Made by a program: the position numbers and the translations under genes
Origin: Nitrospirota bacterium
Lineage (GTDB): Bacteria > Nitrospirota > UBA9217
Length of the DNA: 64,000 bases
Direction of reading: 5' to 3'
Assembly (NCBI GenBank): GCA_963663225.1
Contig: OY760142.1
Span: 512,001-576,000, forward strand
In this document: piece after piece, positions 1-13,409 of the stretch
How the letters are laid out: every line of letters begins with the position of its first letter
How positions within the stretch are numbered: the first letter of the stretch is position 1
Notes under the pieces: model-generated
Database searches by the model: none
Told to the model about the DNA's origin: nothing
What the model saw: only the letters and a program-made list of their open reading frames with translations

Positions 1-1119
1 CGCATCAACTCCATGATTTTCAACTTTGAACTTTATTGTATATGGCAGCAAAGGTAAATAGGGCAGATTCAAACTGAACTTGACACTTTTCCCTTTTGGC
101 AAAAAACGGCTTGTAGGTGAATAGATGCCTTCAAACTGGCCACCCCGTTCGCTGTAAATTTCGGCCGTAATCCGAATACCGTCTGCATTCTTATGGTAAG
201 TCGGATCAAATTGCGCGATCGGTGAATGTTTCAAGTATGCGTTCCAGTTAAGTTCATATTGTCGGTAGTTTATCGGGTTGCCTTGCCCATCGGTGTGATT
301 CGGTTGAAGATACGGCACCGGAACTTTATTGCCATTCAACGTAACCGACTTTACAGAAAGTAGGTCTTCAGGAAAATCAATAAAACTTCGTATAGATTCA
401 CCAATCATAATCTGATTCCGGCTGGCCGCATGCTGTAGTTTCGAAGCGACATCAACAAAGAAGGATGTAGCAGTGACTTCTTCCATGCCAGGATAGCCAT
501 AGGAACTCCACAGCACATCTGCTTCTTTGCCAAAATCGACACCCACGCGAATTCCAAAAGGCTCCTTATACCCCATGGAATTCAGTTTTGGAACAACGCT
601 CTGCTCAACAAAATAGCCGAGGACAGACGCGCAGTTCAGACCATCGACGATGCCAGATTCCGGTGCAACAGTTCGACCGCCGAAATATGCCATCACCGCA
701 TCGCCCATGATTCTGTGCACATGGCCGTTGAATGACTTGATGATTTCCATAGCGACTCGAACGAATGCGTTCTTGATCCGGAATACATCTTCTAATGGAT
801 AAAGAAGGCTAAGGCGTGTGGAGCTTTCAATATCCATGAATAGAGTCGTAATTTGACACTTAATCACCTGGTCTGTCCCGAGAAGGTGCTTGAAATCGGG
901 ATGATCACCAATATCCGGCCGCTGAGGTTCACCTTTGTGATAGAGAGGGCGAAGTATCCGTTGAATTGAATATTGCGGTACAAGCACGTTAGCTGTAGAT
1001 TCGGAAAAAGTCACTGCAGAATCCATCGATTTCGATGCCAGCAAGCGGGTAGCGTTTCTTTTGCTCGCATCTTCAAGATAGCAGGAAAATGTGTTCTGAA
1101 AACTATTTCTGACTCCCAT
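1..1119 (-). CDS. pycC: Pycsar pyrimidine cyclase (class III nucleotide cyclase plus start of a C-terminal AGS-C-like domain); 3' end beyond window
   Basis: Manual translation from ATG at 1119 (RBS AAGGAG at 1130-1135) is open to base 1: MGVRNSFQ...GDHPDFKHL...TTLFMDIESSTRL...GHVHRIMGDAVMAYFG...GIRVGVDFG...EVTATSFFVDVASKLQHAA...KFKVENHGVDA. Cyclase metal-binding Asp motifs are present and the gene lies directly after a PycTM-like gene. Confidence 0.9.
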   Translation of the reverse strand, partial: MGVRNSFQNTFSCYLEDASKRNATRLLASKSMDSAVTFSESTANVLVPQYSIQRILRPLYHKGEPQRPDIGDHPDFKHLLGTDQVIKCQITTLFMDIESSTRLSLLYPLEDVFRIKNAFVRVAMEIIKSFNGHVHRIMGDAVMAYFGGRTVAPESGIVDGLNCASVLGYFVEQSVVPKLNSMGYKEPFGIRVGVDFGKEADVLWSSYGYPGMEEVTATSFFVDVASKLQHAASRNQIMIGESIRSFIDFPEDLLSVKSVTLNGNKVPVPYLQPNHTDGQGNPINYRQYELNWNAYLKHSPIAQFDPTYHKNADGIRITAEIYSERGGQFEGIYSPTSRFLPKGKSVKFSLNLPYLPLLPYTIKFKVENHGVDA

Positions 1120-1135
1120 ACCGGCAATTCTCCTT

Positions 1136-1672
1136 TCAAATAAGAGCCCTGGCCACTGCCACGATCTTAACCAAAATCATCAAACCAAGTGCCGGTAGCT
1201 GAACAAAAAGAATGGCGCCTACCGCTATTTTCATTTTTCGGAACTTGTCATTGAGGCCTCGGGCCAGAACATGAGCCTGCATGCAACAATCTCGAAGCAG
1301 TTCTTCATTATTGAGTTCATTAACACATTGGTGATACTCTTCCGGAGTATCGAATTCTGCGATATGCCCAAAGAATATCTTCGAATGGTATTTCGTCGGG
1401 TCCTTTGGTGATTTCAAGAATGGATTTATGACTTGGAACACCGTCGCCAAAGAGAACAGGGATGATATCGCTGCTATAAAAAGTAGCAAGCTTACGATAG
1501 CGATCGCGACTGCCTGTTGACCAAACGTCTGAAGCAGCTCGCCCCATTTGAGAACAATGGCGCTAAAGATAAATGTATCAAAGGCCACGATCACCGTTGC
1601 CTTCGTATTTGTCGTATTAATGTAATGATCGAAACGATTAATAACTCGCCAGAGAAAATCCGTGGATGACAT
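1136..1672 (-). CDS. pycTM: Pycsar transmembrane effector (PycTM / DUF5706-like)
   Basis: Motif pattern 'RFDHYINTTNTKA', two TM helices, 'P...SKIFFGHIA', 'QAHVLARGLNDKF', terminal TM; adjacent to the cyclase. Confidence 0.88.
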   Translation of the reverse strand: MSSTDFLWRVINRFDHYINTTNTKATVIVAFDTFIFSAIVLKWGELLQTFGQQAVAIAIVSLLLFIAAISSLFSLATVFQVINPFLKSPKDPTKYHSKIFFGHIAEFDTPEEYHQCVNELNNEELLRDCCMQAHVLARGLNDKFRKMKIAVGAILFVQLPALGLMILVKIVAVARALI

Positions 1673-1719
1673 ATCGGGCTCCCTTTTTCGTCATGTGCAC
1701 TACTTGTTCTAAAACAATC

Positions 1720-1746
1720 GGGCGAGACTCATAGATGAGTTCGCCC
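1720..1746 (-). terminator. Hairpin between the microprotein gene and pycTM (possible weak terminator/attenuator)
   Basis: Minus strand GGGCGAACTCAT-CT-ATGAGTCTCGCCC followed by GATTGTTTT. Confidence 0.5.
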
Positions 1747-1753
1747 TTGCAAA

Positions 1754-1927
1754 TTACTTTTCCTTCCGCACGCCCTTGAAAGGATCCTTGTCTTGTTTCT
1801 GATCGATGAAGCGACCGGTTTCCGCATCACGCTTTACCCAGCGGTCGTTGTGTGGATTGTAGGTCTGAGACCGGTCTGTTACTTGGCCATGCCTGTGACC
1901 GTCTCCTGTTGGTGGGTTTTTCGCCAT
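1754..1927 (-). CDS. 57-aa basic microprotein of unknown function
   Basis: MAKNPPTGDGHRHGQVTDRSQTYNP...RWVKRDAETGRFIDQK...PFKGVRKEK; strong RBS GGAGGTG upstream of ATG 1927. Confidence 0.8.
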   Translation of the reverse strand: MAKNPPTGDGHRHGQVTDRSQTYNPHNDRWVKRDAETGRFIDQKQDKDPFKGVRKEK

Positions 1928-1952
1928 TATGTTCACCTCCCTTCTTTTTGGA

Positions 1953-2369
1953 TTAGGCACCATCATTTGATATAACAAGAATAATAGTCGTTGCCAATAG
2001 CCCGACCATCAATACTGCTGTCTGTAGTTGTTTGCTTTCCCTTAACCCTGTAGCTACGAACCGCGCAAAATGCTCACAATTGTTGCCAAATAGATCGTAT
2101 GCATCATTTTCAAGAGCCTTTTTAATTCTTACCATTGCATAAGGCTCGTCGGTGATCTTGGTTATGAACTCCCATTTGCCCGTATCGGCTAACCAGTCGG
2201 TTCGAATGCGAGGAGGGGTCTGATGAATTACCACAGGCAAGTTGTGGTCTACTGAAAGCTCCAAACGATTCCCGATATCGAGAATCCCGTAATGGTCTAT
2301 CAGAACCCCTTTCACGGTGCACTTCTGCTTTATAAGATAAAGTCCATCACTCAGCCTATTGCGCGGCAT
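1953..2369 (-). CDS. LRAT (lecithin retinol acyltransferase, permuted NlpC/P60) family protein with C-terminal membrane anchor
   Basis: 'DHYGI', 'VVIH' and 'YDLFGNNCEHFA' motifs; hydrophobic C-terminus; RBS AAGGAGGT. Confidence 0.85.
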   Translation of the reverse strand: MPRNRLSDGLYLIKQKCTVKGVLIDHYGILDIGNRLELSVDHNLPVVIHQTPPRIRTDWLADTGKWEFITKITDEPYAMVRIKKALENDAYDLFGNNCEHFARFVATGLRESKQLQTAVLMVGLLATTIILVISNDGA

Positions 2370-2421
2370 CGTTGATACCTCCTTTACACCCTAAAACTAT
2401 TAGTTGTGGCTTGTTAGATAG

Positions 2422-2452
2422 AAGGCTTTAAATACATCCAACTTAAAGCCTT
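2422..2452. promoter_or_regulatory. Palindrome A, candidate operator
   Basis: AAGGCTTTAA-ATACATCCAAC-TTAAAGCCTT; core CTTTAAAT-N7-ACTTAAAG is shared with 3055-3085. Confidence 0.6.
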
Positions 2453-2462
2453 GCTAAAAAAA

Positions 2463-3044
2463 TTATGTCACTGGCATATAAAGATATTGCTTGCCATGAG
2501 GGTCAATAATTTCCTTTCTTCGAATCAGCCTTGACTTGAACAACTTACCCAAGTAAGTACTTGCTGTATAAATATCTTTTTTAAAAACGAGATCTGCGAT
2601 TTCTCTTGCTGTACATTTACCTGCTGTCATAATATAATCATAAATTAGCAAATCTACAGACACTTTCTTTTTACCTTGTTTCTCTCCAAATACAATAAAT
2701 GGATGTTTTTTGTTCTTTTGCATAACCAGGCATGGAACTTTCCGATAAGATGTTACAAGTTCGAGATCATACATAGAATTGTCAGGAATATTTTTACTTA
2801 CAAGAAAAAGTTCTCTATCTTCGCTTACCAACTCTTTCATTAAAAGCACGATGACTTCATCTGCAATAGAAGAATTAAAAGACCCAATGCCCTCAAAGTC
2901 CAGATAGATTATATCTTCGTTAGATAGCAAATTCTTCGTTTGTTTCAGAATATCCTTTTTTATTTCAACGCCCCAATCTCGCGAATTTAGGTCAATTCCT
3001 TTAATGCCAAGCTGTTTCTTTATTTTTAGGATCGAAATAATCAT
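2463..3044 (-). CDS. STAS-like (DUF4325-like) domain plus C-terminal winged-helix protein; CapS-like repressor candidate
   Basis: 'LNSRDWG...IIYLDFEGIGSFNSSIADE' STAS-like motif with Ser; C-terminal 'CTAREIAD...TASTYLGKLFKSRLIRRK...GKQYLY' wHTH. Confidence 0.7.
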   Translation of the reverse strand: MIISILKIKKQLGIKGIDLNSRDWGVEIKKDILKQTKNLLSNEDIIYLDFEGIGSFNSSIADEVIVLLMKELVSEDRELFLVSKNIPDNSMYDLELVTSYRKVPCLVMQKNKKHPFIVFGEKQGKKKVSVDLLIYDYIMTAGKCTAREIADLVFKKDIYTASTYLGKLFKSRLIRRKEIIDPHGKQYLYMPVT

Positions 3045-3054
3045 AATGCGAAGC

Positions 3055-3085
3055 TAGCCTTTAAATGATCTATACTTAAAGGCTA
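3055..3085. promoter_or_regulatory. Palindrome B, candidate operator
   Basis: TAGCCTTTAA-ATGATCTATAC-TTAAAGGCTA; same core and spacing as palindrome A. Confidence 0.6.
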
Positions 3086-4015
3086 TAATAAACCATGTTG
3101 CTCATGTGTGTCAAGAGCAAAGTTTATCTCTCCCAAAGATAGAATGATCGCGATTCTCGTGCCTCTGCATAGTGGCATATTGATATACTCGCTCAACTTG
3201 CCATCAGGTCTACAGAGTACCGCGCCACCACCCGAATTTATCCATAGATACCCTGAAGAGTCCCAAACTATTTTTTGAACTTCGTGAAGTCCTAAACCTC
3301 TGTCACCTGCTCCTGAAACGCCAGGCTCCAATGCCTTTCTAATAAATTCTGAATCATTGGTGAAGCCGAATCTATATTTTAATGCAAGACTGTGTCTAAT
3401 ACCGATACCATCATCGACAACAGCAAGCTTTACGATCTCAGATCCAGATTTTTTATATTTATATCTCTGAATTGCAACATAGCCATCGCTTCCGCTGTGC
3501 GTATAAACATTGGTGCAAAGTTCGGTCATTACTTTAACGAAAAAATCAACATTCATCTTTTTTCGAAATGTAGACAGGATTGAGACGGCTCGTTCTCTGA
3601 ACCTTATCACGATGTCATCGACATCCCCTCTTCCATCTTCTGTTGAAGTGCTGATTTTTTGTATTTCCAGTAAACTTTTTGTCGCGCTACTCCGCGAAAA
3701 TTTGGCATCTATTGCCGGATTGTGGAACCACTGACCACCTTTTTTAAAAAAATCCATTCGTTCCAAGTATTTAATCAACTCAGATCTGTTATCTATAATA
3801 TGAATCTTGTATCGTGTACGTTCAAAGATCTGTTTGCCGATGAATAACAAACCCAACAAACCATACGGAGAAATAAACGATACATTTCGTAAATTTAAGA
3901 CAACAGAAATGCTGTGTTCAAGTTTGCATTTCTGAATCTTATCCACAACAAAACCAAACTTGTCAATATCGTCTAGTCCATCGGGAATATCTATGTTATA
4001 AAGTGAAGTTGTCAT
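3083..4015 (-). CDS. STAS-like plus HATPase (anti-sigma-factor-kinase-like) protein; CapK-like candidate
   Basis: N-terminal 'VLNLRNVSFISPYGL...YLERMDF'; GHKL motifs 'ELCTNVYTHS', 'VVDDGIGI', 'GVSG..RGLGL', 'GTRI'; no His-phosphoacceptor domain. Confidence 0.75.
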   Translation of the reverse strand: MTTSLYNIDIPDGLDDIDKFGFVVDKIQKCKLEHSISVVLNLRNVSFISPYGLLGLLFIGKQIFERTRYKIHIIDNRSELIKYLERMDFFKKGGQWFHNPAIDAKFSRSSATKSLLEIQKISTSTEDGRGDVDDIVIRFRERAVSILSTFRKKMNVDFFVKVMTELCTNVYTHSGSDGYVAIQRYKYKKSGSEIVKLAVVDDGIGIRHSLALKYRFGFTNDSEFIRKALEPGVSGAGDRGLGLHEVQKIVWDSSGYLWINSGGGAVLCRPDGKLSEYINMPLCRGTRIAIILSLGEINFALDTHEQHGLL

Positions 4016-4562: not shown

Positions 4563-4853
4563 TTATGAGTTGAGTTCAACGATTTGTACGATTCGCGCAT
4601 AATTCTCACCAGCAGGATCTTCTATTGGCGCAAACAATACTTTATCCCCGGCTTGAAGCTCGATTTTCGTTCTCACCAATTCGCGACTGTCTATCCTGTA
4701 CTCTTCACCATTCAGAAGCGAGCGGATTCTTCCGGTGCGATCATCCATATTAAATTCCATGATGATTCCTTCTTCCTTTGCGTAAACTTCATCCCAGACT
4801 TCTTCTCTTTCATCTTCCGACATTGATGTAATCGGTTTATCTTTTTGGGACAT
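4563..4853 (-). CDS. Small hypothetical protein, possible cold-shock/OB-fold
   Basis: 'EGIIMEFN..RTGRI...ELQAGDKVLF...YARIV' pattern; RBS GGAGGG upstream. Confidence 0.6.
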   Translation of the reverse strand: MSQKDKPITSMSEDEREEVWDEVYAKEEGIIMEFNMDDRTGRIRSLLNGEEYRIDSRELVRTKIELQAGDKVLFAPIEDPAGENYARIVQIVELNS

Positions 4854-4893: not shown

Positions 4894-4925
4894 ACCGTCT
4901 CACAACCGTCTCACTAGCGTCTCAT
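4894..4925. repeat. Three tandem 10-bp repeats at 11-bp period; candidate integrase arm-type sites
   Basis: ACCGTCTCAC (4894), ACCGTCTCAC (4905), AGCGTCTCAT (4916), next to the tRNA 3' end. Confidence 0.65.
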
Positions 4926-4934
4926 TGATAAGAA

Positions 4935-4964
4935 AAGGGGCTACAGCAAATGCTGTAACCCCTT
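4935..4964 (-). terminator. Hairpin downstream of tRNA-fMet
   Basis: AAGGGGCTACAGCA-AA-TGCTGTAACCCCTT; minus strand ends in a T run. Confidence 0.7.
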
Positions 4965-4972
4965 GAATTTAT

Positions 4973-5049
<77 letters not shown>

Positions 5050-5286
5050 ATGAGGAATGCATAATAAAGCACGAGCCCGCACTTGTCAAGAAAATTATGA
5101 CCTTGACGCAAGAATAGTTAAGTTTTTCATTATTATGCCGATGAATAAAGCATAAATCACAAAAACAGCTGAGCAGGCCCGAACAGAGAATCAGCCAATA
5201 TTTAGTTGACAAAACCGCTTTTTTTTCTCTATAATTGTGAAGAATATATGATAATTTTGGCAAGATCTTATGGCATGAGGTTGCTG

Positions 5287-8854: not shown

Positions 8855-9069
8855 GCTTTTATAATGGCGATCTTGAATCCTCCGCCATCCGGTTGCATGT
8901 CCCGTACCTTCCATCCGAGTGTTTCCACTGCGCGGACCACGTTTTCCTTTGAGGTGTCCGTGTCGACAAGAATGGTAAACGCCTCCAGCGTTGTGTCGGT
9001 GAGCGCGTCGAGCGTGGCAAGAACCGGTTGGGGACAGGAAAGCCCGCGGGTATCGATCACATTGTTCAT
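8851..9069 (-). CDS. tusA: TusA/SirA family sulfur carrier
   Basis: MNNVIDTRGLSCPQPV (CPxP motif); start overlaps the yedE stop. Confidence 0.9.
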   Translation of the reverse strand: MNNVIDTRGLSCPQPVLATLDALTDTTLEAFTILVDTDTSKENVVRAVETLGWKVRDMQPDGGGFKIAIIKA

Positions 9070-10175
9070 GCAGCACCTCCGGAGGCGATTTTCTTTCTCA
9101 TGGTAAAACCGACAAGAAGGCAGAACAGAAGGCCGATAACAACGCCCGATATGCCGAAGGGTCCGATTCCTTTTGGAGAACTCGCGAGTCCAAAGTTGTG
9201 CGCGAAGGCCGCCCCGACCATCATCCCGACGACAAACACAGCGGCATCTCCGTCCCCTTCTCCTGATAAAAACAACTGGCGTCCAGGACATCCTCCTGCC
9301 AGTGTAAACGCGAGTCCGGCAAGCATCATGCCCAGGAAATTCCAAATGCTCATGGTATGGGCGACCGGCTGGTTTTCAAATCCCGGCTTGAATTGTCCAA
9401 GGGCCAGATTGACAACAAAGGCAGTCACGGCAAGGCCCGCGACGCCGTAAAACAGATGGGACTGCCGGAACAGGATCAAATCCCTGAACGCACCCATGGT
9501 GCAAAAACGGCTCCGCTGGGCCAGAAAACCGACCGCCAGCCCCGCGCCAAGCGACAGGAGGAGCGGCGCGTGCATGGCTCCCGGTCCCTTGACACTGTAA
9601 AAAAGAACAGTGTTTTTTTCCTGCCCCTCGATCTGGGGATACACCAGCATCAGCACAAGGAAGCCCATCATGATAAGGGGCATCATCCAGCCGACCGCGG
9701 TATGAGTCGATTGCGATCTGTTCAAACTGTATCCGGCTTTCAAAAACCGCGTGCCGATCCAGATGCCGGCTACAAGACCGAGCAGGCCAAAGATTGCATT
9801 CGCATCACCTCCGGTCAACCGCAGCACTGCGCGCCAGGGACATCCCAAAAAAACCAGGGCACCGATCATCGCGAAAACCCCCAGCAGAAACCGCACGATG
9901 GGATCCGAACCGGCCCGGGGACGAAACTCTTTAAAGCTGTATGCGGCAACCATGGCCCCCAACACAAACCCGATAAGTTCAGGCCGCATGTACTGAACGA
10001 TGTCCGCGCGATGCAACCCCAAAGACCCGGCAATGTCGCGCTCAAAGCAGGCAACACAAATACCCATGTTTCCCGGGTTCCCAAAATACTGCAGCAACGG
10101 TGCAAATAAGCCGATACACGCACCGACGCCGATGATTCCCCATTTTGTCGCAAAAAAATTCTTCAAAACAGCCAT
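9066..10175 (-). CDS. yedE: YedE/YeeE family putative selenium/thiosulfate transporter
   Basis: 'GNPGNMGICVACFERD', 'FLGCPWR', 'QRSRFC', 'GGCPGRQ'; multiple TM helices. Confidence 0.93.
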   Translation of the reverse strand: MAVLKNFFATKWGIIGVGACIGLFAPLLQYFGNPGNMGICVACFERDIAGSLGLHRADIVQYMRPELIGFVLGAMVAAYSFKEFRPRAGSDPIVRFLLGVFAMIGALVFLGCPWRAVLRLTGGDANAIFGLLGLVAGIWIGTRFLKAGYSLNRSQSTHTAVGWMMPLIMMGFLVLMLVYPQIEGQEKNTVLFYSVKGPGAMHAPLLLSLGAGLAVGFLAQRSRFCTMGAFRDLILFRQSHLFYGVAGLAVTAFVVNLALGQFKPGFENQPVAHTMSIWNFLGMMLAGLAFTLAGGCPGRQLFLSGEGDGDAAVFVVGMMVGAAFAHNFGLASSPKGIGPFGISGVVIGLLFCLLVGFTMRKKIASGGAA

Positions 10176-12656: not shown

Positions 12657-12821
12657 TCAGACCTACCTCCGAAAAAAAACCTTTTTAGTGCGATTTCTAT
12701 TGTAGCCCATCTGCTTTCTTTACACAAGGGAGAAGAATGCGCCGTCTGGACACTCCTCCGAAGTTACGTTATACTGATGACAGCGGTACCTATATCAGTT
12801 TTTGTACGAGGTTATGCACTG

Positions 12822-13409
12822 ATGGAATTTATCCAGCCTTTTTTAATGAGTTTCATACCTCTCATGGTCGCCCTGGATGCGCCGGGAACGCTTCCCATCT
12901 TCGTCGGAATGACTGAAGACATGGAAAAGCAGGAGCGGGCGCGGGTGGTCCGCCAGTCGATCGTCACGGCGCTTCTTGTGACCATGGGATTCATTCTGAT
13001 CGGGCGGGCAGTCTTTAAAGCGCTCGGAATCCTGGTCGAAGACTTCATGATCGCGGGCGGCATCGTCCTGCTGATCATTGCCATTTATGATGTTCTGCGT
13101 GCGGGAGAGCGTAAGGTGTTGCAGAGCCGGGAACTCGGCGTCGTACCGCTCGGTACGCCCCTCATCGCGGGACCGGCAACGCTCACAACCGCCCTCGTCC
13201 TCGTCGGAAGCTATGGCTATGCCCCGGTCATGCTGTCCCTGGCCGCCAACCTGATCATTGCCTGGATTATTTTTTCCCAATCAGACCTGATCATCCGGCT
13301 GATCGGCATCAGCGGTTCCCGGGGTTTTGCCAAGGTCATGGCATTGATTCTGGCTGCTTTTGCCGTGAAAATGATCAGAACCGGCCTCATGGCCTTTATG
13401 CATGGTTGA
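12822..13409 (+). CDS. MarC family membrane protein
   Basis: 'FIPLMVALDAPG', 'VVPLGTPLIAGP'; six TM helices. Confidence 0.9.
   Translation: MEFIQPFLMSFIPLMVALDAPGTLPIFVGMTEDMEKQERARVVRQSIVTALLVTMGFILIGRAVFKALGILVEDFMIAGGIVLLIIAIYDVLRAGERKVLQSRELGVVPLGTPLIAGPATLTTALVLVGSYGYAPVMLSLAANLIIAWIIFSQSDLIIRLIGISGSRGFAKVMALILAAFAVKMIRTGLMAFMHG

Follow-up and report, generated by a model that had tools for sequence, protein, structure and literature searches.

The closest described counterpart of the present locus is the CapK/CapS pair (Chambers, Rani, Min, Villa, Corbett, EMBO J 2026, PMC13373217). According to this paper, an immune operon is the regulated cargo of the canonical capKS loci, the cue that activates CapK is single-stranded DNA, and an N-terminal HTH belongs to the definition of CapK. 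CapS sites with TTAA half-sites were reported there in the spacer between the two genes and in the spacer downstream of capS, and the published operator spacings are N1 and N10. The introduction of the paper also counts Pycsar among the systems regulated by the CapW/BrxR and CapH+CapP families. A sequence-only reading of the DNA studied here had named CapK/CapS as a kinase/STAS-repressor pair found upstream of immune operons. The published work bears this out, and the two regulatory genes described below (K and S) are homologous to that pair and show the same operator logic. That reading did not recognise the gene combination as described, which agrees with Dataset EV2 of the paper: among its downstream systems, Pycsar is unnamed as capKS cargo, and there is no 'pycsar', 'cyclase' or 'lrat' entry. 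Three modules are combined in the locus, which lies as a mosaic beside a tRNA-Met gene.

Gene content and surroundings

The list of open reading frames in the window (the whole analysed stretch of 64,000 nucleotides) confirmed all six co-oriented genes as real minus-strand ORFs, lying where the sequence-only reading had placed them (Table 1). Its assignment of the last two genes to a Pycsar pair also agrees with the PADLOC and Pfam matches. PycTM is a two-TM Pycsar effector (PF18967, 1.1e-9; PADLOC 2TM effector, 3.1e-39; PADLOC PycTM, 5.3e-31). As for PycC, the first 373 of 434 codons are in the window and the gene extends 186 nt past its start; PADLOC PycC matched the partial protein at 6.1e-115 and the whole one (434 aa, L001:1315-2619) at 3.2e-128, end to end. 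The pair resembles the Pycsar system, whose founding paper is Tal et al. 2021, in that an AGS-C-domain cyclase and a 2TM effector are adjacent and co-oriented; it differs in that the effector gene is ahead of the cyclase gene and four more genes precede the pair.

Table 1 Positions of the genes and other features in the window
Feature	Position	Strand	Remarks
K	3083-4015	-	310 aa
S	2463-3044	-	193 aa
LRAT-like	1953-2369	-	138 aa
Microprotein ORF as listed	1754-1978	-	74-aa ORF
Microprotein, start revised	1754-1927	-	57 aa; PADLOC candidate PDC-S38 / phrog_12550
PycTM	1136-1672	-	178 aa
PycC	1-1119	-	partial in window
tRNA-Met(CAT), flank of variable site	4973-5049	-	ARAGORN
Integrase C-terminal remnant, 47 aa	4168-4311	-	NF007246 1.1e-5
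Predicted operator 1, perfect palindrome TAGCCTTTAA-N11-TTAAAGGCTA	3055-3085	.	K-S spacer, inverted repeat I12
Predicted operator 2, perfect palindrome AAGGCTTTAA-N11-TTAAAGCCTT	2422-2452	.	S-LRAT spacer, inverted repeat I9
Promoter-like site TTGACA-18-TATTAT	3085-3114	-	11/12 consensus matches; consensus match only
GC-rich hairpin, then GAUUGUUUUAG (U tract), between microprotein and PycTM	1720-1746	-	folding

The locus had further been regarded as a tRNA-anchored island. Three observations favour this view: the tRNA-Met(CAT) gene, which is the sole tRNA found by ARAGORN in the window; the integrase remnant, whose residues 8-39 align with NF007246 profile positions 371-402 of 413; and the GC content, which falls to 0.33-0.40 across 2501-4000. 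However, a search of 40 kb upstream gave no att-like repeat above 12 nt. The stretch that holds the tRNA-Met gene (4915-5092) is 87.8% identical to positions 12666-12844 of another locus, L116, in which the island is filled differently.

The kinase, the STAS-wHTH protein and their predicted operators

K is a CapK-like STAS plus GHKL Ser-kinase-like protein. In Pfam, HATPase_c was matched above the cut-off (9.9e-7) and STAS below it (0.044), and the N-box Asn169 is invariant in all 18 aligned relatives. A profile of K (A1) was compared by hhalign with the CapK encoded in a canonical Vibrio capK-capS locus whose CapS matches 9Z72 at 5e-115. The comparison gave a probability of 97.3% (E 2.4e-11, 267 columns), K residues 7-290 being aligned with CapK 59-354. 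K lacks an N-terminal HTH: the alignment begins only at CapK residue 59, and no upstream in-frame extension is present in the ORF list. Moreover, Leu14 of K is aligned with the Trp of the Vibrio CapK motif ATGWIDD, whose position suggests that this Trp is the ssDNA-stacking W68 described there; therefore, the activating ligand of K may differ. By these alignments K is a distant CapK relative. It also matches PHROG 3364 (6.5e-25), whose function is unknown. The close family is rare (19 K and 14 S clusters in a word-indexed search).

S matches DUF4325 (STAS-like) above the Pfam cut-off (2.8e-5). When its profile (A2) was run against PDB, 9Z72 (0.0033) and 9Z71 (0.0054), both nearly full length, headed a list of 18 rows with E up to 10; these are the CapS crystal structures named in the data-availability section of PMC13373217. 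The similarity is weak and is seen only at the profile level: hhalign with CapS gave a probability of just 32% (E 4.7e-4), and the single S sequence did not match CapS. In the structure model (pLDDT 82), residues 1-116 adopt a STAS fold (Z 8.2-9.7; SpoIIAA 1tid_B 8.4) and residues 122-193 a wHTH (Z 9.8). Ser59, invariant in 11 of 11 sequences, is aligned with the phospho-serine S58 of V. cholerae CapS and is the predicted phospho-acceptor. Taken on its profile matches, S is a distant, repressor-like relative of CapS.

Both predicted operators have 10-nt arms that are 100% complementary and TTAA cores (TTAA-N11-TTAA). The pattern CTTTAA-N11-TTAAAG with at most one mismatch occurs twice in the 64 kb against 0.12 expected, and none of 100 shuffles gave 2; the two matches are operators 1 and 2, and none occurs ahead of PycTM. 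The orthologous locus L002 keeps TTAA-N11-TTAA in both matching spacers, at 8925-8943 (K-S) and 9572-9590 (S-downstream). The promoter-like site is located inside the 3′ end of K and abuts operator 1, as does an identical site in L002 (8890-8919). At operator 2, no promoter came out of a simple consensus scan.

The LRAT-like protein and the microprotein

The LRAT-like protein matches PF04970 just under the cut-off (4.4e-5; 24.2 bits against 24.3). It carries the motif GNNCEHFAR, and H49 and C98 are invariant and H26 nearly so among 33 sequences. The model (pLDDT 83.9) ends in a helix (113-135), and its fold comparison (VIA) gave PLAAT4 7zot_A (Z 7.9, rmsd 3.0, 88 residues), 3kw0 (7.3) and Aichivirus 2A (7.1), the next unrelated row being at 3.9; Foldseek against Aichivirus 2A gave a probability of 0.99 (E 0.089). 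The model thus points to a tail-anchored PLAAT/LRAT-like (H-box/NC-box) Cys-His enzyme with a hydrophobic C-terminal tail. With PLAAT/HRASLS/LRAT and picornavirus 2A proteins it shares the NCEHF Cys motif, two conserved His and the fold, and like tail-anchored PLAATs it has a hydrophobic helix at the C-terminus; unlike these, the present candidate enzyme is a bacterial 138-aa form in defence islands. The LRAT family is large and promiscuous: the relatives are mostly without Pycsar and without the microprotein.

Translation of the microprotein most likely begins at 1927 and gives 57 aa, because PADLOC PDC-S38 aligns with residues 18-74 of the listed 74-aa ORF and a strong ribosome-binding site is ahead of Met18. 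The match covers the full-length HMM (2.1e-32), and phrog_12550 is matched at 6.1e-18. Across 22 sequences (four phyla, phages and plasmids) 15 alignment columns are invariant, and in 120 pairs identity is 80% at codon positions 1+2 and 40% at position 3. The gene adjoins a CapK-, CapW-, CapH/CapP- or LexA-type regulator in 11 of 17 related loci; in the canonical Vibrio locus it comes after capK-capS. Most of its relatives have neither Pycsar nor LRAT. PDC-S38 was taken into PADLOC because genes of this type had turned up inside BREX, DISARM or type I R-M systems, and the catalogue treats it as a stand-alone candidate (Payne et al. 10.1101/2024.01.29.577857); here and in its relatives, in contrast, a DNA-damage-type regulator precedes it, either directly or with one gene between, and another immune system follows. 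Of the two accessory genes that had been called uncharacterised, both indeed lack characterisation, but the microprotein was already in PADLOC, which also called the Pycsar pair and has no LRAT model.

Extent of the proposed regulated unit

Neighbourhood analysis, which had been proposed as a check, found the modules in other combinations. The K-S-LRAT-microprotein cassette recurs in L002, where it precedes CBASS, and LRAT-microprotein-PycTM-PycC is found in L116 at the same tRNA-Met site behind a CapW-type regulator, a wHTH-WYL-WCX protein that replaces K and S. DNA homology with L002 covers 1758-4000 (67.6%) and stops exactly at the microprotein stop; that with L116 covers 2-2160 (80.4%) and stops within LRAT. 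Given this recombination, the intervening hairpin and the relatives of LRAT and the microprotein that mostly lack Pycsar, the idea of one dedicated, extended Pycsar operon does not hold.

Folding of 1690-1760(-) gave -19.1 kcal/mol (z -2.4), and an analogous hairpin with a U tract is 3′ of the microprotein in L002 and L116. The hairpin is terminator- or attenuator-like, and with its U tract it may make Pycsar a separate unit. We nevertheless favour, with some reserve, a mosaic defence island in which the HTH-less CapK-like K and the CapS-like S control a downstream unit reaching from LRAT and the microprotein across the hairpin into Pycsar. A possible, clearly less probable arrangement is a four-gene cassette, closed by a terminator, in which control by K/S is confined to LRAT and the microprotein, with an independent Pycsar pair joined by island shuffling and served by its own weak promoter. 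The hairpin directly 3′ of the microprotein stop in all three loci, the two homology boundaries, the cassette ahead of CBASS and an operator pattern that is absent before PycTM speak for it. Against it, a consensus scan found no sigma-70-like site in the 81-nt microprotein-PycTM spacer, which fits read-through, and the hairpin escaped the consensus terminator scan. Besides, canonical capKS cargo is an immune operon (PMC13373217), the Vibrio microprotein and CBASS genes run head to tail downstream of the operators, and the immune gene that follows the microprotein in other loci begins 4-30 nt downstream of it.

Discussion

On the favoured reading, with control reaching into Pycsar, S dimers on the two operators would keep S and all downstream genes low, operator 1 abutting the promoter-like site before S and operator 2 lying between S and LRAT. 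A DNA-damage or infection cue would activate K, which would phosphorylate Ser59 of S; the S dimer would dissociate and leave the DNA, and LRAT and the microprotein, whatever role they may have, would be raised. Pycsar would also be raised via read-through of the hairpin, so that the locus would be inducible. PycC would sense phage and make a cyclic pyrimidine nucleotide, and PycTM would stop the cell at the membrane.

An improbable alternative would place the locus in a general DNA-damage or stress regulon rather than in anti-phage immunity, K/S, LRAT and the microprotein being a stress cassette merely located in a variable island. For Bub operons and yegP, both found as capKS cargo, a part in global stress responses has been suggested (PMC13373217), and the microprotein is found behind LexA-like genes in L124 and L125 and beside an SSB gene in L126; the immediate neighbours, however, are Pycsar and a type IIG restriction-modification enzyme here and CBASS, Wadjet and AbiE in relatives, and PDC-S38 genes are known inside defence systems (10.1101/2024.01.29.577857). 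A post-translational switch as in VapKSC, in which S binds a toxic partner (LRAT or PycTM) and K releases it by phosphorylating S with no transcriptional control, is very improbable: K, as VapK, is STAS-GHKL without an HTH and the PLAAT-like fold suggests that the tail-anchored enzyme could be toxic, but S ends in a complete wHTH, whereas the C-terminal region of VapS is described as short (PMC13373217), two palindromic predicted operators lie in the spacers, Pfam found no PIN/VapC domain in the eight proteins scanned, and tblastn matched K or S in none of 80 metagenome loci of LRAT relatives.

The comparison with CapK/CapS is therefore one of shared design with differences. In both, a kinase gene and, directly after it, a STAS-wHTH gene stand ahead of an immune system, with a homologous STAS-GHKL core, a CapS-like fold, a conserved phospho-serine position and TTAA-based palindromes in both spacers. 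In contrast, K has no N-terminal HTH and has Leu for Trp at the proposed ssDNA site, S resembles CapS only weakly, both predicted operators are N11, the cargo is Pycsar, and two extra genes stand between S and the immune pair. CapW/BrxR and CapH+CapP operons share the position and presumably the role, but they use ligand-binding or protease-cleaved repressors instead of a kinase-substrate pair. The locus thus belongs to an already known type of regulated immune locus, with a predicted kinase-repressor switch ahead of Pycsar and two uncharacterised small genes between, and the microprotein recurs downstream of switches that sense DNA damage in widely differing bacteria, phages and plasmids.

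Structure of the locus and its surroundings

The window (G000:C1:512001-576000) belongs to a genome consisting of a single contig of 3.26 Mb. Six co-oriented genes had been claimed here by the sequence-only reading, and ORF calling listed six minus-strand ORFs at that place. They encode a STAS-GHKL kinase-like protein (K), a STAS-wHTH repressor-like protein (S), an LRAT/PLAAT-like protein (LRAT), a microprotein, and the Pycsar effector PycTM and cyclase PycC. The spacers, in order from K to PycC, are 38, 93, 25, 81, and 16 nt. With K and S 38 nt apart and Pycsar downstream of both, the arrangement is that of a kinase gene and then a STAS-wHTH gene ahead of an immune operon.

Features of the locus in window coordinates
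Feature	Position	Strand	Length	Remarks
K	3083-4015	-	310 aa	
Operator 1 (predicted)	3055-3085			K-S spacer; TAGCCTTTAA-N11-TTAAAGGCTA, perfect inverted repeat
S	2463-3044	-	193 aa	
Operator 2 (predicted)	2422-2452			S-LRAT spacer; AAGGCTTTAA-N11-TTAAAGCCTT, perfect inverted repeat
LRAT-like gene	1953-2369	-	138 aa	
Microprotein	1754-1927	-	57 aa	assigned gene; ORF 1754-1978
PycTM	1136-1672	-	178 aa	
PycC	1-1119	-		extends past the window edge; complete protein 434 aa (in locus L001)
Acidic ORF	4563-4853	-	96 aa	between integrase remnant and tRNA-Met

The Pycsar assignment of the sequence-only reading was borne out by model matches, which place a cyclase next to an effector. The whole PycC matched the PADLOC PycC model from end to end (3.2e-128), and PycTM matched PF18967 above the Pfam cut-off as well as the PADLOC models 2TM (3.1e-39) and PycTM (5.3e-31); the two genes are thus predicted to form a Pycsar pair of cyclase and effector. 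No PADLOC models were matched by K, S, or LRAT.

Immediately 3′ of PycC lies a gene for an 860-aa fusion of a XamI endonuclease and an Eco57I-type methylase (type IIG-like; L212:17105-19687, window -2895 to -313), and an intact tyrosine integrase is found about 4.1-5.3 kb ahead of the window start (L212:14695-15885). On the opposite side of the locus, an integrase remnant is followed by tRNA-Met, the sole tRNA in the window. The island seems to span at least the region from tRNA-Met to the intact integrase, about 10 kb. A search of the 40 kb upstream for an att copy of the tRNA-Met 3′ end yielded no match better than 12 nt (E 0.28). For the acidic ORF beside tRNA-Met, no Pfam match was significant and above the cut-off, and PADLOC, NCBIfam, and PHROGs gave no significant match either.

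Relationship of K to CapK

The kinase/STAS-repressor pair half-remembered in the sequence-only reading does exist in print as CapK/CapS (Chambers et al., EMBO J 2026, PMC13373217). The family was first described in 2026, from data rich in Proteobacteria. According to that paper, canonical CapK has the architecture HTH-STAS-GHKL and CapS the architecture STAS-wHTH, and the phosphorylation of an invariant CapS Ser by CapK breaks the CapS dimer and derepresses the downstream operon. As a reference we used the Vibrio gigantis plasmid NZ_AP025494.1. Two genes lie there 3′ of a type I restriction gene; their products are annotated as an ‘ATP-binding protein’ (361 aa) and an ‘HTH protein’ (183 aa), and the latter matches the CapS sequence of 9Z72 at 5e-115.

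The profile of K (A1) aligned with V. gigantis CapK at an hhalign probability of 97.3% (E 2.4e-11), with K residues 7-290 over CapK residues 59-354. Since the alignment begins at CapK residue 59, K keeps the STAS-GHKL body without the N-terminal HTH, for which there is no room in K; the full CapK architecture is therefore absent, and its STAS-GHKL part is present. A CapK lacking the HTH is described by Chambers et al. (2026) as functional in their reporter. The GHKL active-site Asn, N169 of K, is invariant (18 of 18 sequences) and aligns with the N-box Asn of Vibrio CapK. In the same comparison, Trp66 of Vibrio CapK (in ‘ATGWIDD’) stands opposite Leu14 of K. Judged by position, this Trp66 would be the ssDNA-stacking W68 of the CapK paper, which gives Phe at the W68 site of VapK.

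The close family was small in a word-indexed search (19 K clusters and 14 S clusters), and the wider STAS-GHKL family comprised 8699 representatives at E ≤ 0.001 and 307 at 1e-30, the best 150 of which were all 118-331 aa long. K also matches phrog_3364, whose function is unknown in PHROGs. Nothing relevant was found by a single-sequence search of the PDB with K, and the matches of its profile there were limited to generic histidine-kinase ATPase domains.

A distant K-like STAS-GHKL branch (about 280 aa, about 36% identical) was observed in loci L003-L081 (e.g., L031, L052, L055, L062, and L073), at a recurring chromosomal site in genomes labelled mostly Nitrospirota or Planctomycetota. The order there is K, 0-7 variable genes (DNA methylases, restriction enzymes, MazEF), an S-like STAS-wHTH gene, and often RmuC; the S-like ORF is present in 33 of the 79 loci having a K ORF. 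K and S of this branch seem to bracket variable R-M cargo, in contrast to the side-by-side pair in the window. One distant K-like protein (L033:7944-8792) has a PADLOC match to the N-terminal part of DISARM DrmA (2.5e-12, profile 73-248 of 1750), and DrmA may carry a module related to it.

Relationship of S to CapS

When the profile of S (A2, built from 11 S relatives) was compared with the PDB, the top two rows were 9Z72/9Z73 (E 0.0033) and 9Z71 (E 0.0054), nearly full length; these entries are the CapS proteins of V. cholerae and E. roggenkampii according to Chambers et al. (2026). A single-sequence PDB search with S gave nothing relevant, and A2 aligned with V. gigantis CapS at an hhalign probability of only 32% (E 4.7e-4, 145 columns). 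In the AlphaFold model of S (pLDDT 82), residues 1-116 form a predicted STAS domain (Z 8.2-9.7 against STAS proteins, including 8.4 against SpoIIAA, 1tid_B), and residues 122-193 form a predicted wHTH (Z 9.8). At E ≤ 0.001, this model had no Foldseek match in the PDB (entries up to April 2026); the rows obtained were wHTH domains only, the CapS entries being absent.

The motif S55-F-N-S-S-I-A-D-E63 of S is invariant, with S59 conserved in all 11 relatives. Ser59 aligns with S58 of V. cholerae CapS, a position occupied by Ala in the S58A crystal and by Ser in the wild-type V. gigantis copy. S accordingly has the combination expected of a CapS, namely STAS plus wHTH with an invariant Ser on the second predicted STAS helix. 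The link between S and CapS is supported by weak profile scores together with the agreement of fold, motif, and operators.

Predicted operators and the reach of the switch

The pattern CTTTAA-N11-TTAAAG, with at most one mismatch, occurs twice in the 64 kb, at operators 1 and 2, against 0.12 occurrences expected; two or more were found in none of 100 shuffles. In L002, the closest related locus (K 61% identical), TTAA-N11-TTAA is present in both equivalent spacers, and a TTGACA-18-TATTAT site adjoins operator 1 both in the window and in L002. Chambers et al. (2026) place the CapS sites in the K-S spacer and downstream of S, with TTAA half-sites 1 or 10 bp apart. In the canonical Vibrio locus L220, TTAA-N10-TTAA at 3890-3907 and TTAAATTAA at 3975-3983 both lie between capS and the next ORF. 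The predicted operators of the window are thus similar to those of CapK/CapS in occupying the same two spacers and in being TTAA palindromes, but differ from the published N1 and N10 in having N11. This resemblance provides independent support for the predicted CapS-like repression.

We consider it fairly probable that a CapK/CapS-type switch represses the unit that starts from operator 2 (LRAT and microprotein) and reaches Pycsar by read-through. The main alternative, which is possible but clearly less probable, is that a four-gene cassette closes at a hairpin, with Pycsar as an independent system next to it. Just 3′ of the microprotein stop, the window has a GC-rich hairpin with a U tract behind it (-19.1 kcal/mol, z -2.4), and the same elements occur 3′ of the microprotein stop in L002 and in L116, the same-family genome with a CapW-type regulator. 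A consensus scan of the 81-nt microprotein-PycTM spacer did not flag the hairpin as a terminator and found no promoter. Regulation of Pycsar by the CapW or CapH/P families is stated in the introduction of Chambers et al. (2026), and the word ‘pycsar’ is absent from its Dataset EV2, of whose 49 ‘unknown’ rows 30 were covered. A general stress role for the locus is improbable. A VapKSC-like protein-level switch is most improbable, because VapKSC has a PIN-domain VapC toxin and a VapS with a short C-terminal tail, whereas S has a wHTH and predicted operators and a PIN domain was found in 0 of the 8 proteins scanned.

The LRAT-like gene

The sequence-only reading had spoken of two uncharacterised accessory genes. 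Of these, LRAT is without a PADLOC model, and the microprotein is already catalogued as PADLOC candidate PDC-S38. The LRAT family is large (336 clusters among 343 candidates), and its alignment shows an invariant Cys motif, GNNCE[H/Q]FAR, two conserved His residues, and a hydrophobic C-terminal helix. As expected for an NC-box and an H-box, C98 and H49 were invariant and H26 nearly so among 33 sequences. The Pfam score of the window LRAT is 0.1 bit below the cut-off, and PF04970 is precomputed on many relatives. Its structural model (pLDDT 83.9) matched PLAAT4 (Z 7.9, rmsd 3.0, 88 residues), an NlpC/P60-type peptidase (7.3), Aichivirus 2A (7.1), TseH, YiiX, and a PPPDE deSUMOylase; these six account for six of the seven rows at Z ≥ 5, the next row being at 3.9, and a permuted papain-like fold is predicted from the model. 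The top Foldseek row was Aichivirus 2A (probability 0.99, E 0.089).

In loci L133 and L134, the gene order is CapW-type regulator, LRAT, patatin, CD-NTase, and E1-E2, and further neighbours of LRAT are ThiF-type E1s, a TIR protein, a Schlafen-type protein, helicases, and plasmid ParB/RepC. From these varied neighbours, LRAT is regarded as a promiscuous island gene. LRAT and the microprotein were also considered as an obligate pair, and this was rejected: LRAT adjoins 2 of the 17 other microprotein loci in the phylum sample (plus the window), and the microprotein adjoins 1 of 80 metagenome LRAT loci (L135 only), about 70 of which have at least 300 nt downstream. Cyclic-nucleotide systems directly behind LRAT were found in three lineages (window/L116/L135, L002, and L133/L134), all with membrane-directed effectors, in a small sample and with effector types that are common anyway. 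Among the matches listed in a literature search, none linked LRAT or PLAAT with CBASS, Pycsar, or anti-phage defence.

The microprotein PDC-S38

The small ORF matched PDC-S38 (2.1e-32, profile 1-57 of 57) from its residue 18 on, and a strong ribosome-binding site precedes that Met; the gene was therefore assigned to the shorter frame. The source of the PADLOC candidates of this kind (10.1101/2024.01.29.577857) describes 145 of them as untested genes located inside BREX, DISARM, and type I R-M systems; the name ‘PDC-S38’ was not found in a literature search. No relatives exist in Pfam, NCBIfam, or the PDB, the sole other family being phrog_12550, which PHROGs lists without a function. The best row of a profile search against the PDB, which gave nothing significant, was the ribosomal uS4 tail (E 0.69, treated as chance), and the ESM Atlas returned unnamed 57-aa clusters only.

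PDC-S38 was found in 26 of 401 sampled genomes of the window's phylum, its own genome counted, and in 24 of the 329 high-quality ones. We fetched 20 of these places, 17 of which, apart from the window, hold a clear copy. In 11 of these 17 loci, the microprotein has, at a distance of at most two genes, a regulator belonging to a class that senses DNA damage: K-type in L115, L120, and L123; CapW-type in L116; HTH_3 plus Peptidase_M78 (CapH/CapP-like, as a pair or a fusion) in L111, L112, L118, L119, and L122; and LexA-like, with the microprotein directly 3′ of it, in L124 and L125. L117 has an HTH_3 gene only, and L113, L114, L121, L126, and L127 have none of these classes. The genes 3′ of the microprotein are CBASS, Pycsar, or Bub-like E1/E2 operons or restriction-modification genes.

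Beyond the phylum, tblastn found the microprotein in 16 phage and 83 plasmid records, of which two and six, respectively, were opened. In Vibrio, it lies behind canonical capK-capS and is followed by a SAVED/CD-NTase CBASS. A 5.4-kb Klebsiella plasmid has it in divergent orientation to a WYL gene, and in Streptococcus phage Javan443 it is flanked by cro and an HTH-S24 repressor. In Methylomagnum it lies 3′ of a Bub-like operon, and no annotated regulator stands beside it in Phocaeicola, Yersinia ruckeri, or Clostridium perfringens. In Staphylococcus phage phi575 (L213 4001-4165), a homologue, 62.5% identical, is left unannotated; the record instead places a ‘Gp10’ CDS on the opposite strand of this stretch, which is probably the wrong one.

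Across 22 microprotein sequences, 15 columns are invariant. In 120 pairs, codon identity is 40% at third positions, near saturation, against 80% at positions 1 and 2, and the constraint is therefore on the protein. Conservation merely as a DNA recombination anchor was rejected on these values and because 2645 of the 4746 same-residue codon pairs use different codons.

Two side observations concern particular copies. In L061:8911-10557 and L123 (G178:C42), no stop codon separates the microprotein frame from that of a DNA methylase (548-aa ORF; open frame 558 aa); either the two are naturally fused here or a stop codon has been lost. In L126:8297-8719, a copy adjoins, and is divergent from, an SSB gene. 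This SSB neighbour and the LexA-like neighbours in L124 and L125 are compatible with a link to ssDNA or SOS, which they do not prove.

A broader role for both interposed genes can be put forward only as a doubtful suggestion. PDC-S38 would be not a stand-alone system but a gene induced by DNA damage that opens immune and prophage switch operons almost universally. It would stand directly behind four kinds of regulator that sense ssDNA or damage by different mechanisms (CapK/S, CapW, CapH/CapP, and LexA/CI-type), and it would act on a conserved cellular component of the signal (e.g., ssDNA, RecA, or SSB modulation) or as a common co-factor of the induced systems. The tail-anchored LRAT-like enzyme would then be a second add-on, specialised for cyclic-nucleotide systems with membrane-attacking effectors (PycTM, patatin).

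Exchange of modules among related loci

With the K profile, 281 relatives were detected in species-representative genomes, and 80 loci were kept; the neighbourhood genes across loci are greedy ORF calls from scripts, not curated annotation. Only one locus of this set (L002/L120) is close: K and S are followed there by LRAT (69% identical), the microprotein (88%), and then a patatin-type phospholipase, CD-NTase, and E2, that is, CBASS, with the effector first again. In L116, the regulator is of the wHTH-WYL-WCX (CapW) type, and behind it come LRAT (62%), the microprotein (93%), PycTM (84%), PycC (85%), and Wadjet JetABC; L135 belongs to the L116 lineage (96.7% DNA identity).

DNA homology between the window and L116 covers 2-2160, from PycC into LRAT (80.4%), and resumes at the tRNA-Met flank (4915-5092, 87.8%). 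Homology with L002 covers 1758-4000, from the microprotein stop to K (67.6%). From these blocks, we infer that the regulator and the cyclic-nucleotide cargo have been swapped around the LRAT-microprotein segment at a shared hotspot on the tRNA-Met side. As a separate observation, L116:236-5695 has a complete JetA/JetB/JetC set directly 3′ of the Pycsar pair and a divergent AbiEi/AbiEii pair 5′, with the same tRNA-Met flank, which is a dense and variable defence hotspot.

Discussion

The CapK/CapS regulator family and Pycsar are already known. What is new is the pairing of a CapS-like repressor with a CapK lineage that has no HTH, Pycsar as the predicted cargo of this pair, the N11 operators, and two interposed genes with their recombination pattern. 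The locus widens the range of CapK/CapS to kinases without the HTH in the phylum of the window, the closest related locus, L002, being labelled a Nitrospirota MAG, and to Pycsar as predicted cargo. Because the predicted operators are legible straight from the sequence, the regulatory model is directly testable. Regulators (CapK/S, CapW, LexA-like, and CapH/P) and cargo (Pycsar, CBASS, Bub-like, and R-M) are exchanged around two small conserved genes, which makes this a clean case, found in nature, of immune regulation by interchangeable parts. The most useful lead may be the microprotein, for it is strongly constrained at the protein level from the genomes of this phylum to Streptococcus prophages and Klebsiella plasmids, and, by gene order, it repeatedly occupies the first induced position.
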